A stretch of 2,149 nucleotides of DNA, from positions 1 through 2,149 of the forward strand of contig CH709177.1 of assembly GCA_000004695.1 (NCBI GenBank), in the 5' to 3' direction. A program made the translations under genes and the position numbers. The notes beneath the pieces were generated by a model that worked only from the letters and a program-made list of their open reading frames with translations, ran no database searches and was not told the origin of the DNA. Below are positions 1 through 2,149 of the stretch, one piece after another (within the stretch, counting starts at the first letter, position 1; each line of letters opens with the position of its first letter). Origin of the DNA: Dictyostelium discoideum (Eukaryota).

Positions 1-227
<227 letters not shown>

Positions 228-244
<17 letters not shown>

Positions 245-925
245 ATTGGAAGAGGAGAGAAAACAAGAACAAAAGAAAAAGAAAGAATTGGATGATCAAG
301 AATGGAAGAGAAAGGAACAACAATATCAATCTGATCTTCAATTGGAAAAAGAGAAACAATCTGCATTAGAGTTGGAACGTGAACGTGAAATTCAATCAAT
401 TCTTGAATCAGAGAAACAACGTCAACAACAAGTTGAACTTGAAATTCAACAAGAAAAAGAAAGAACCAAACAATTACAACAACAATGGGAACAAGAGAAA
501 TTGAAATTGGAAGAGGAAAGAAAAGGATTGGAAAATAAAAAATCATTGGAAATGGCTCAAAAGAAACAAGAACTATTAGAGTTAAATAAAAAGATTGAAC
601 AAGAACAACGTGATCTAGAAGAACGTATTCAAAAAGAACAAAAAGAAAAAGATCAAAGAGAAAAGCAAGATCAATTGGCTCAAATGGAATTAGAAAGAGA
701 AAGAGAAAGAGAAAAAGAAGAAAAAAAGAGAAAACAACAACAATTGGCTCAATTAGAAAAAGAAGAAAGAGAAAGAAATGAAAAACTTGAAAAAGATAGA
801 CAATTACAATTAGAACAAGAAATTGAAAAAGAAAGAAAATTAAAACAACAACAAAAAGAAAAAGAACAAAAAGAACAAAAAGAAAAAAGAGAACAAAGAG
901 AAAAAGAAGAACAAAAATCAAAAGA
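228..925 (+). repeat. Tandem direct repeat copy 1 of a ~700-bp coiled-coil module. Its partner is 1209..1906 (period 981 bp).
   Basis: By-eye alignment shows 698 bp identical except 527 g / 1508 a and 665 g / 1646 a. The two copies are separated by a 283-bp segment (926..1208) that contains the junction motifs, the (AAT)n tract and the N-rich/acidic segment. Confidence 0.9.
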
Positions 926-965
926 AATGTTTGTTGATCAATTGGAACACCAAATAAAAATGTAA
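234..965 (+). CDS. Coiled-coil E/K/Q/R-rich repeat protein ORF (tandem copy 1). It has no ATG start: the frame opens directly after the TGA at 210..212, and the track's start at 234 is a TTG. Possibly a headless or pseudogenised copy, or part of a larger frame-shifted gene.
   Basis: ORF-track frame is open 213..962 with stop TAA at 963..965. The translation is a long low-complexity coiled-coil: LEEERKQEQKKKKELDDQEW...LEREREREKEEKKRKQQQLAQLEKEERERNEKLEKDRQLQLEQEIEKERKLKQQQKEKEQKEQKEKREQREKEEQKSKE, then MFVDQLEHQ from a second copy of the unit-start motif, then IKM*. Codon usage is typical of AT-rich amoebozoan genes. Internal ATGs are only at ~551 and ~683. Confidence 0.5.
905..953 (+). repeat. 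Junction element J (unit-end aaagaagaacaaaaatcaaaagaa + unit-start aatgtttgttgatcaattggaacaccaa), occurrence 1. Occurrence 2 is at 1172..1226 with 4 extra nt (gata). Inverted partial copies lie at 2..21 (unit-end) and 198..225 (unit-start).
   Basis: Exact shared strings were found by inspection: 24 nt unit-end and 28 nt unit-start in both direct occurrences, and 20 nt plus 27 nt in the inverted occurrences that flank the kinase fragment. Confidence 0.85.
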
Positions 966-975
966 AGAATAATAA

Positions 976-1006
<31 letters not shown>

Positions 1007-1210
1007 GGAAATAATAATACTACTTTAATAAATACTGAAAATAATAATAATATAACTAAATTTGATGACGACTCAGAAAAAGAATCTGAAGAAGAACCAA
1101 AGCCAATTATCATAAAAGAAGAACCAAAAATAGTTTCAGTTAAAGTTGAATCCAAAAAGGTCGTCGTTAAAGAAGAAGAACAAAAATCAAAAGAAGATAA
1201 TGTTTGTTGA
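938..1210 (+). CDS. Asn-rich / acidic coding-like segment in frame +2 (no ATG). Possibly a linker exon of a larger repeat protein whose reading frame is broken at both flanking junctions.
   Basis: Frame 2 reads SIGTPNKNVKNNKYNNNNNNNNNGNNNTTLINTENNNNITKFDDDSEKESEEEPKPIIIKEEPKIVSVKVESKKVVVKEEEQKSKEDNVC and stops at TGA 1208..1210. Segment 1061..1199 is less AT-rich and looks like coding sequence. The other two frames are full of stops here. The segment is bounded by unit-start motif 926..953 and unit-end motif 1172..1195. Confidence 0.3.
978..1006 (+). repeat. (ATA/AAT)n trinucleotide microsatellite, ~9.7 units. A shorter (AAT)4 lies at ~1040..1051. In frame 2 it encodes poly-Asn.
   Basis: ataataataataataataataataataat is read directly from the sequence. 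Poly-Asn tracts of this kind are characteristic of dictyostelid coding regions (established knowledge). Confidence 0.9.
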
Positions 1211-1940
1211 TCAATTGGAACACCAATTGGAAGAGGAGAGAAAACAAGAACAAAAGAAAAAGAAAGAATTGGATGATCAAGAATGGAAGAGAAAGGAACA
1301 ACAATATCAATCTGATCTTCAATTGGAAAAAGAGAAACAATCTGCATTAGAGTTGGAACGTGAACGTGAAATTCAATCAATTCTTGAATCAGAGAAACAA
1401 CGTCAACAACAAGTTGAACTTGAAATTCAACAAGAAAAAGAAAGAACCAAACAATTACAACAACAATGGGAACAAGAGAAATTGAAATTGGAAGAGGAAA
1501 GAAAAGAATTGGAAAATAAAAAATCATTGGAAATGGCTCAAAAGAAACAAGAACTATTAGAGTTAAATAAAAAGATTGAACAAGAACAACGTGATCTAGA
1601 AGAACGTATTCAAAAAGAACAAAAAGAAAAAGATCAAAGAGAAAAACAAGATCAATTGGCTCAAATGGAATTAGAAAGAGAAAGAGAAAGAGAAAAAGAA
1701 GAAAAAAAGAGAAAACAACAACAATTGGCTCAATTAGAAAAAGAAGAAAGAGAAAGAAATGAAAAACTTGAAAAAGATAGACAATTACAATTAGAACAAG
1801 AAATTGAAAAAGAAAGAAAATTAAAACAACAACAAAAAGAAAAAGAACAAAAAGAACAAAAAGAAAAAAGAGAACAAAGAGAAAAAGAAGAACAAAAATC
1901 AAAAGAGAAAAACAAGATCAATTGGCTCAAATGGAATTAG
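1200..1940 (+). CDS. Coiled-coil E/K/Q/R-rich repeat protein (tandem copy 2), with the ATG at 1200 lying inside the unit-start motif ([15 protein letters not shown]...). The ORF track begins it at TTG 1146.
   Basis: Frame 0 is open 1146..1937 with stop TAG 1938..1940. The first in-frame ATG is at 1200..1202 in an A-rich context (aagataATGttt). The protein is identical to copy 1 except G->E at one position (527 g vs 1508 a). The C-terminus KNKINWLKWN* results from an out-of-frame junction into the third partial repeat at ~1906. Confidence 0.5.
   Translation: MFVDQLEHQLEEERKQEQKKKKELDDQEWKRKEQQYQSDLQLEKEKQSALELEREREIQSILESEKQRQQQVELEIQQEKERTKQLQQQWEQEKLKLEEERKELENKKSLEMAQKKQELLELNKKIEQEQRDLEERIQKEQKEKDQREKQDQLAQMELEREREREKEEKKRKQQQLAQLEKEERERNEKLEKDRQLQLEQEIEKERKLKQQQKEKEQKEQKEKREQREKEEQKSKEKNKINWLKWN
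1209..1906 (+). repeat. Tandem direct repeat copy 2 of the coiled-coil module.
   Basis: See copy 1. The offset of 981 bp is a multiple of 3, so both copies are in the same reading frame. Confidence 0.9.
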
Positions 1941-2149
1941 AAAGAGAAAGAGAAAGAGAAAAAGAAGAAAAAAAGAGAAAACAACAACAATTGGCTCAAT
2001 TAGAAAAAGAAGAAAGAGAAAGAAATGAAAAACTTGAAAAAGATAGACAATTACAATTAGAACAAGAAATTGAAAAAGAAAGAAAATTAAAACAACAACA
2101 AAAAGAAAAAGAACAAAAAGAACAAAAAGAAAAAAGAGAACAAAGAGAA
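1808..2149 (+). CDS. Frame +2 open reading frame that continues the coiled-coil repeat (third, partial copy) to the window end. It is 3'-partial and the first ATG is at 1931.
   Basis: The last frame-2 stop is TGA 1805..1807. From 1904 the frame reads REKQDQLAQMELEREREREKEEKKRKQQQLAQLEKEERERNEKLEKDRQLQLEQEIEKERKLKQQQKEKEQKEQKEKREQRE, identical to copy-2 residues, because 1902..2149 duplicates 1636..1883 with a 266-bp (= 2 mod 3) offset. Confidence 0.3.
1902..2149 (+). repeat. Nested partial third copy. It duplicates 1636..1883 (and therefore 656..903) at an offset of 266 bp and runs off the window.
   Basis: The sequence from aaagagaaaaacaagatcaattggctcaaatgg to the end matches 1636..1883 base for base. 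The junction lies at ...aatcaaaaga|gaaaaacaag, and the internal site is preceded by the near-identical gatcaaaga (microhomology). Confidence 0.85.

Follow-up and report, generated by a model that had tools for sequence, protein, structure and literature searches.

Near-identical repeats, an inverted kinase fragment and two shared linkers in a 2,149-nucleotide contig recorded as Dictyostelium discoideum

The stretch of DNA considered here (the window) comprises 2,149 nucleotides recorded under Dictyostelium discoideum, namely positions 1 to 2,149 of the forward strand of contig CH709177.1 in GenBank assembly GCA_000004695.1. Its most conspicuous element is a module of about 700 nt, termed M, which is present as two near-identical full copies and a partial third copy. 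M is accompanied by an inverted fragment of a protein kinase gene (K), by a spacer core (U) that lies between the full copies of M, and by two short linker sequences (J1 and J2) that recur at the boundaries of these segments. A preliminary description of the same DNA, made from its letters without database searches, had drawn attention to the two full modules. The features of the window, in order of position, are the following.

2 to 21, minus strand: inverted copy of J2, which takes the place of the kinase sequence after TLPKI; J2 has four exact copies in the window.
16 to 208, minus strand: K, a fragment of an NdrA-type NDR kinase (Pfam Pkinase match) that holds subdomains VIII-X only and ends WKQTLPKI.
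198 to 225, minus strand: inverted copy of J1; there are 0-1 mismatches among its three copies.
198 to 244, no strand: palindrome with a perfect 18-bp stem and an 11-nt loop, which links the inverted K unit to M copy 1.
213 to 215, minus strand: in-frame TGA within 12 inserted nt, TGTTGATCAATT (about 207-218), that separate the kinase codons SNV from GTPDY; the translation reads SNVC*SIGTPDY.
227 to 925, plus strand: M copy 1, with its J1 head shortened to TGATCAATTGGAACACCAA, G at 526 and G at 665.
904 to 953, plus strand: J2 (904-926) abutting J1 (926-953); the M frame continues IKM and then meets a stop.
954 to 1172, plus strand: U, which alone in the spacer is unique; frame 3 is its only open frame (poly-Asn, then acidic/Lys-rich), and it lacks a start codon.
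1173 to 1226, plus strand: J2 (1173-1195), then GAT, then J1 (1198-1226); the ATG at 1200 opens the M frame.
1208 to 1906, plus strand: M copy 2, with A at 1507 and A at 1646; together with J1 the full unit is 1200-1907, 708 nt or 236 codons.
1902 to 2149, plus strand: partial M copy 3, an exact match to 1636-1883 with a Tandem Repeats Finder (TRF) period of 266; it is out of frame and is cut by the window end.

Compared position by position, 227-925 and 1208-1906 match over 699 nt at an offset of 981 with only two mismatches, an identity of 99.71% that is far beyond chance. Both mismatches are G/A differences: the one at 526/1507 turns GGA into GAA and thereby Gly into Glu, and the one at 665/1646 turns AAG into AAA and is silent. 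The preliminary description had the degree of identity (>99.7%, two substitutions) and the silent change right. Its two copies and its Gly-to-Glu substitution are likewise real, but each was placed one base too far to the right, the copies at 228 and 1209 instead of 227 and 1208 and the substitution at 527/1508 instead of 526/1507. It also counted two modules, which is correct for full copies, and overlooked the partial one that follows; the kinase fragment, the linkers around the segments and the want of a coherent gene escaped it as well. The sequence at 1902-2149 equals that at 1636-1883 with 100% identity and continues past the end of the window; it carries the A of copy 2 at the second variable site, and it amounts to a 266-bp head-to-tail duplication of 1636-1901. 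Its offset of 266 (3 x 88 + 2) puts it out of frame with respect to copy 2 by a shift of 2 nt. At the junction between copies 2 and 3 (1906/1907) only 5 exact nt are common (AAAGA), within about 40 nt of imperfect similarity. M is itself made of older, decayed repeats, visible as internal periodicities: at 630-925 and 1611-1906 there are degenerate periods of 9, 18, 27, 36 and 69 nt and one of about 210-213 nt.

The full copies of M lie 282 nt apart, and the spacer between them, which holds stops in the M frame, had been given as 283 bp of unique sequence. Exact-match mapping on both strands leaves only 954-1172 as unique. The ends of the spacer are repeats, 926-953 being the same as 1199-1226 (J1) and 1173-1195 the same as 904-926 (J2). 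The earlier remark that the arrangement is not a simple tandem array is right for the two full copies; the third directly follows copy 2.

J1 is a 28-nt head linker, TAATGTTTGTTGATCAATTGGAACACCA, found inverted at 198-225 and direct at 926-953 and 1198-1226, with its last 19 nt present also at the head of M copy 1 (227-245). J2 is a 20-nt tail linker, GAAGAACAAAAATCAAAAGA, found inverted at 2-21 and direct at 906-925, 1175-1194 and 1887-1906. Chance would supply none of the three copies of J1 (0-1 mismatch; 0 expected) and 0.03 of the four exact copies of J2. The inverted J1 at 198-225 matches 1198-1225 exactly over 28 nt and 926-952 exactly over 27 nt. J1 and J2 bracket three unrelated inserts (K, M and the U core) in both orientations, one J1 and one J2 being inverted along with K. 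With each insert read in its own sense, the order in the window is J1-K-J2 (inverted), J1'-M-J2, J1-U-J2, J1-M-J2 and partial M. The identity at offset 981 breaks off exactly at the linkers, at 227 and 925. The left end of the window lies 1 nt outside J2, and the right end lies 1 nt short of the start of a J2 22-mer, which suggests that the ends of the record were set by the J2 repeat, as a contig break or as the end of a unit.

Each copy of J1 also contains overlapping BclI (TGATCA) and MfeI (CAATTG) palindromes, TGATCAATTG, at 203-212, 227-236, 935-944 and 1208-1217. Linkers introduced by restriction enzyme-mediated integration or otherwise built on restriction sites were considered on this account and rejected: the sites could hint at engineering, but CAATTGGAA (Gln-Leu-Glu) recurs naturally across M. 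Composite primers of the kind used in loop-mediated isothermal amplification were rejected too, the pieces being too short and too widely spaced. Parts of J1 and J2 in both orientations, and peptides including MFVDQLEHQ (six strings in all), did not occur in the searchable literature.

Identical boundaries around different inserts could be those of a mobile element or natural cassette. J1 would then be a 28-nt terminal inverted repeat (TIR) around M copy 1, at 198-225 and 926-953, or else J2 and J1 together would form a recombination site of about 50 nt that brackets captured gene fragments (K, U and M), as in fragment-capturing transposons. Perfect inverted repeats of 27-28 nt do surround a 700-bp segment, 198-224 and 926-952 being exactly complementary over 27 nt as the ends of a TIR element are, and the inserts between identical boundaries are heterogeneous, occur in both orientations and include a fragment of a host gene. 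However, there is no target-site duplication, the flanks TATAGTC and AATAAAAA being different; the left "TIR" has conserved kinase coding sequence as its outer 11 nt; the J1 of copy 2 occurs only in direct orientation; and the window has no transposase or recombinase. Nor were other copies found of the two linker-containing sequences used in exact scans: an M 25-mer gave no match in viral, metagenome or genome contig collections, and a J1 20-mer gave none in viral contigs, the only set scanned with it. An element of this kind is very improbable. A scan with U, likewise of viral contigs only, gave no match either. The same slender chance is given to its bolder form, in which a native J2+J1 boundary of about 50 nt, bracketing an NdrA piece, an ER/K-helix module and a poly-Asn acidic segment, would mark an undescribed system of fragment capture or cassette shuffling by site-specific recombination in Amoebozoa.

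K covers positions 158-222 of the 263 in the Pfam Pkinase profile (E 3.3e-16), about a quarter of the domain and not the complete catalytic domain of subdomains I-XI. It has the C-lobe signature of the NDR subfamily, and among solved structures its best matches are human STK38/NDR1 (7e-28) and yeast Cbk1 (2.4e-24), before ROCK and PKA. K belongs to a known kinase family only as a fragment, not as a member gene. An exact scan with a K 27-mer led to an orthologue on metagenome contig Ga0256900_1012357 (positions 1-2207; here L001), the only match among metagenome contigs; exact-pattern scans of viral and genome contigs gave none. The minus strand of L001 holds a complete, intronless gene for a 547-aa NdrA-type NDR kinase of an environmental dictyostelid. 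This kinase clusters at 90% identity or more with KAF2072955.1 of the dictyostelid Polysphondylium violaceum, and the identical protein is on record for 6 contigs of JGI/IMG and Logan.

Between window positions 16-208 and L001, 170 of 194 nt are identical. Over 61 codons (183 nt) the two differ at 23 nt, 20 of them at third codon positions; the codon changes are 21 synonymous and one non-synonymous, and the K peptide is identical at 60 of 61 residues to both the L001 and the P. violaceum proteins. Since 21 of the 22 codon differences are synonymous, K was copied very recently from a functional gene, one of NdrA type that belonged to a related dictyostelid.

In both L001 and P. violaceum the native flanks run AYSNV/GTPDY, without any insertion, and TLPKI/MEEAKAEV. 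NDR kinases carry an insert between subdomains VII and VIII, followed by an activation segment with a regulatory Ser before GTPDY (PMC4120859). In the window the activation segment is not intact, reading SNVC*SIGTPDY, and the sequence upstream of it is not the VII-VIII insert but the reverse complement of M. On the other side, L001 reads ATTATGGAAGAAGCC (MEEAKAEV) where the window has ATCA-GGAAGAACAA, one base having been lost between 22 and 23. Homology to the native gene extends over 11 nt of J1 and 7 nt of J2 and then stops. K thus conforms to what is expected of segments of independent origin that are joined at short common sequences with loss of their native flanks, which have here given way to J1 and J2, and the replacement looks like a microhomology join or a mis-primed product.

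Three ways of rescuing K as part of a gene were tried and rejected. Recoding of its TGA as Trp or Cys does not apply to a codon that sits in a 12-nt insertion missing from the orthologues. An intron hiding the TGA would have no usable acceptor, and at 30 nt would be too short. K as a kinase exon interrupted by a giant insert of M and U fails on the position of M and U, which lie on the opposite strand and in other frames.

K is joined head-to-head to M through the palindrome at 198-244, which as single-stranded DNA folds at -18.7 kcal/mol (z = -7.5). A head-to-head join through a perfect palindrome is a typical junction of a fold-back chimera. J1 itself seems to be built of kinase pieces: its last 11 nt spell the kinase codons (V)GTP, and its first 12 nt, if the G before them is included, form an exact reverse complement of the kinase codons K-Q-T-L at 32-43. 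By chance, K and the J1 region would be expected to have 0.02 10-mers in common. Each strand has the 12-mer GTAATGTTTGTT once, at 32-43 (plus) and at 215-226 (minus), so that the ends of the K unit are panhandle-like. Within M and U, further kinase-derived k-mers were in no excess over chance. None of the snap-back and template-switch schemes that were tried reproduces the make-up of J1 from kinase pieces.

No reading frame crosses the whole mosaic. In the M frame, M copy 1 ends at IKM and a stop; U lies in a different frame, bounded by TGAs inside J1; and K carries both a stop and a frameshift. M copy 2, which begins at the ATG at 1200, runs to KEKNKINWLKWN and a stop, because copy 3 is shifted. 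The minus strand contains at 223-1917 a stop-free frame of 564 codons, rich in F, L and V, that runs across both modules and the spacer; it results from the purine bias of the plus strand (M is 57% A and 15% T). K, M, U and L001 are alike in composition and codon usage, with about 28% GC and a preference for CAA, GAA, AAA and AGA/CGT. An (AAT)n microsatellite at 968-1052 reads in frame 3 as a poly-Asn tract, which is typical of dictyostelid sequence. A scrambled ciliate gene with pointer sequences was rejected, since both the orthologue and the codon usage are of dictyostelid type and CAA is the only codon used for Gln. U has no Pfam match and no protein match covers it; the window has no Rfam, tRNA or plasmid (vector) match; and exact look-ups of the open reading frames (ORFs) of the window (10 or 11) in an index of 15 billion proteins found none on record.

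The frame of M is free of stops, where the other two frames have 9 and 16, and none of 20,000 shuffles was open. In the product, E would make up 27% of the residues, Q 19%, K 18%, L 11% and R 8%, and 57% of all residues would be charged. AlphaFold2, run without an alignment, predicts one helix over residues 2-235 (pLDDT 90.7). The modules had been described as coiled coils, a label that comparison with shuffled sequences does not support: at period 3.5 the power is 0.18, while shuffles average 0.36 and 83% of them are equal or better, and the best a/d occupancy is 0.62 against 0.59, so that heptad periodicity is no better than in shuffles. Opposite-charge pairs at i/i+4 number 49 as against 37 +/- 4.7 in shuffles (p about 0.01). 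By prediction only, M shows the features of an ER/K single alpha helix, a long unbroken helix of E, K and R with salt-bridge pairs at i/i+4. M, if it is real coding sequence, would therefore encode a long, charged E/K/Q/R-rich helix of the ER/K single-alpha-helix type, which as modelled fits better than a coiled coil.

This putative protein has no relatives in the collections searched. M has no Pfam match; a word search of 5.8 billion proteins yielded 8,000 candidates that share words with it, none of them significant; and an exhaustive phmmer search of 1.84 billion representatives gave 0 hits at E <= 0.001. In a control, relatives of about 30% identity would score about 1e-11 at that database size, so the null result is informative, and the protein library searched with M includes at least one dictyostelid proteome.

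Several features of the window speak for a native locus, that is, a dictyostelid gene for an ER/K-rich helical protein that has undergone very recent nested tandem duplications. Such a reading is close to the recent duplication that the preliminary description had offered as one of its options. A 981-bp unit, J1-M-J2-J1'-U-J2', would have been doubled, and a 266-bp piece of copy 2 would then have been duplicated by slippage or unequal exchange in low-complexity sequence, K being a pseudogene fragment from an adjacent inverted rearrangement. In its favour, the copies lie at offsets of 981 (99.7% identity) and 266 (100%), and the 266-bp junction falls in about 40 nt of imperfect similarity, as slippage would have it. 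Each of the lengths 981, 708 and 273 is divisible by 3, the codon usage is dictyostelid-like throughout, and J1 is a natural start of the M frame. An assembler working on a k-mer graph, moreover, cannot write copies that bear substitutions, which suggests that the copies stood on real long molecules. Yet the identity at offset 981 does not run through the supposed unit but halts exactly at the linkers (227 and 925), and the ancestral unit would already need internal duplicates of J1 and J2. K has inverted J1 and J2, and its orthologues are without them; the resulting locus encodes nothing intact; and neither M nor U has a homologue in any searched proteome. An array under concerted evolution would consist of head-to-tail copies that keep the frame, whereas here the full copies are separated by the 282-nt spacer with its stops and the 266-bp copy is shifted by 2 nt. 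On balance a native origin is less likely than not, though it is the main rival of the reading preferred below.

An assembler might instead have made the repeats by itself. In this explanation a de Bruijn or overlap assembler rewalked the short k-mers of J1 and J2 and turned one copy of M into two or three. J1 (27-28 nt) and J2 (20-23 nt) are of the size of small-k overlaps, both ends of the window lie at J2 boundaries, and the expansion or collapse of a repeat by an assembler had already been named as an option. But the join at 1906/1907 has 5 exact nt and the hairpin arms have 18 nt, which a graph with k of 21 or more is unable to create, and a graph traversed twice would give identical copies, not copies with two substitutions. 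Native K has only 11 nt and 7 nt in common with the linkers, and the J1-K and K-J2 joins must therefore already exist in the reads. With just 5 nt and 18 nt of exact sequence at two junctions and two substitutions between the copies, pure expansion or collapse by an assembler is improbable, although less so than a mobile element. A synthetic or computer-generated sequence belongs to the small remainder of explanations.

Of the options that the preliminary description had left side by side (duplication, gene conversion or an assembly artefact), the wider anatomy favours an artefact, in a form other than pure assembler expansion. There is an even chance, in our estimate, that the window is a non-native chimera of real dictyostelid sequences. 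Rather than a gene of two modules, it would be pieced together from five or more cassette-like units, each extending from a J1 head to a J2 tail, in the order inverted K, M, the U core, M and partial M, so that the two "modules" would be copies of one 708-nt unit. Pieces of dictyostelid DNA or cDNA would have been joined outside the genome, perhaps by template switching or by ligation of amplification products with common ends, or else by cloning or contig assembly that produced a chimera. Errors of the polymerase or of sequencing, or allelic variation, would account for the two G/A differences. Because a walk through a k-mer graph is unlikely, given the 5-nt join, the 18-nt hairpin arms, the 11 and 7 nt of K and the two substitutions, the joins should have existed on molecules. 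The repeat map, the linkers common to the inserts in both orientations, the identity, truncation and damage of K, the broken frames, and the orphan status and predicted helix of M are shown by the analysis; the making of the joins in vitro or in silico, outside a genome, and the process behind it are our inference. The duplication of M is real in the record, and is probably not a biological feature.

The evidence for a chimera begins with the three unrelated inserts that have identical ends in both orientations, and with counts of J1 and J2 above chance. K is truncated, with a 12-nt insertion carrying TGA and a 1-nt deletion beside J2. The replacement of its native flanks and its fold-back junction with M count towards a chimera as well. 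Small lesions beside the joins, the loss of all frames, the want of homologues for M and U and the position of the window ends at J2 are further evidence for this reading.

Other observations weigh against it. We infer an artefact from anatomy alone; the linkers match no recognised primer or adaptor, and no specific laboratory procedure is named that yields J1 and J2 exactly. Two ordinary nested tandem duplications, one of period 981 and one of period 266, suffice to produce the right three-quarters of the window, from 227 onward. The composition and codon usage that K, M and U have in common point to one organism or close relatives, and fit a native locus as well. The abutment of J2 and J1 at 925/926 keeps the M frame (708 = 3 x 236), which under random ligation is a 1-in-3 coincidence, and J1 reads as a natural-looking start of that frame (MFVDQLEHQ), with QLE (CAATTGGAA) recurring through M. 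Random chimeras are not known to use one pair of junction sequences four times over. The reuse of junctions points to common ends, whether primer-like or repeat-like.

The main value of the finding is as a quality flag on the record, which should not serve to support either concerted evolution or a modular coiled-coil gene. With its purine-rich strand, the window would also lead ORF callers to make a spurious protein from the 564-codon frame on the opposite strand; a bacterial ORF finder would return a protein of 559 aa. Should the window prove to be native, it would represent extremely recent nested duplications in a dictyostelid low-complexity gene, which are ordinary in kind, and the identical boundaries around unrelated inserts would merit closer study.

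The C-lobe peptide of K is like that of dictyostelid NdrA-type NDR/LATS kinases, represented by KAF2072955.1 of P. violaceum and by NdrA/B of D. discoideum (PMC4120859). Unlike these enzymes, K is without an N-lobe, the insert between subdomains VII and VIII and a hydrophobic motif; its activation segment is interrupted by TGA, and J2 follows TLPKI. M resembles ER/K single alpha helices (SAH domains) in its charge-rich, uninterrupted predicted helix, its i/i+4 pairs and its lack of a heptad signal, but it has no homologue and no flanking folded domains, and its Q content is unusually high for an SAH domain.

As a whole, the window has near-identical direct repeats, spaced 981 and 266 bp apart, in low-complexity, coding-like DNA, and in this it is like repetitive coding sequence that has undergone recent tandem segmental duplication or concerted evolution. 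It differs in the cassette that stands between the full copies, in the end of identity at the linkers, in a 266-bp copy that breaks the frame, and in the inverted kinase fragment with the same boundaries. The fold-back and template-switch chimeras of amplification, including those of multiple displacement amplification or PCR and the hairpin artefacts of cDNA, have in common with the window an inversion joined by a palindrome, joins at microhomologies, indels beside joins and lost frames; the window differs from them in its repeated reuse of the same two junction sequences. In its overall anatomy it is closer to such amplification and fold-back chimeras than to an array under concerted evolution.

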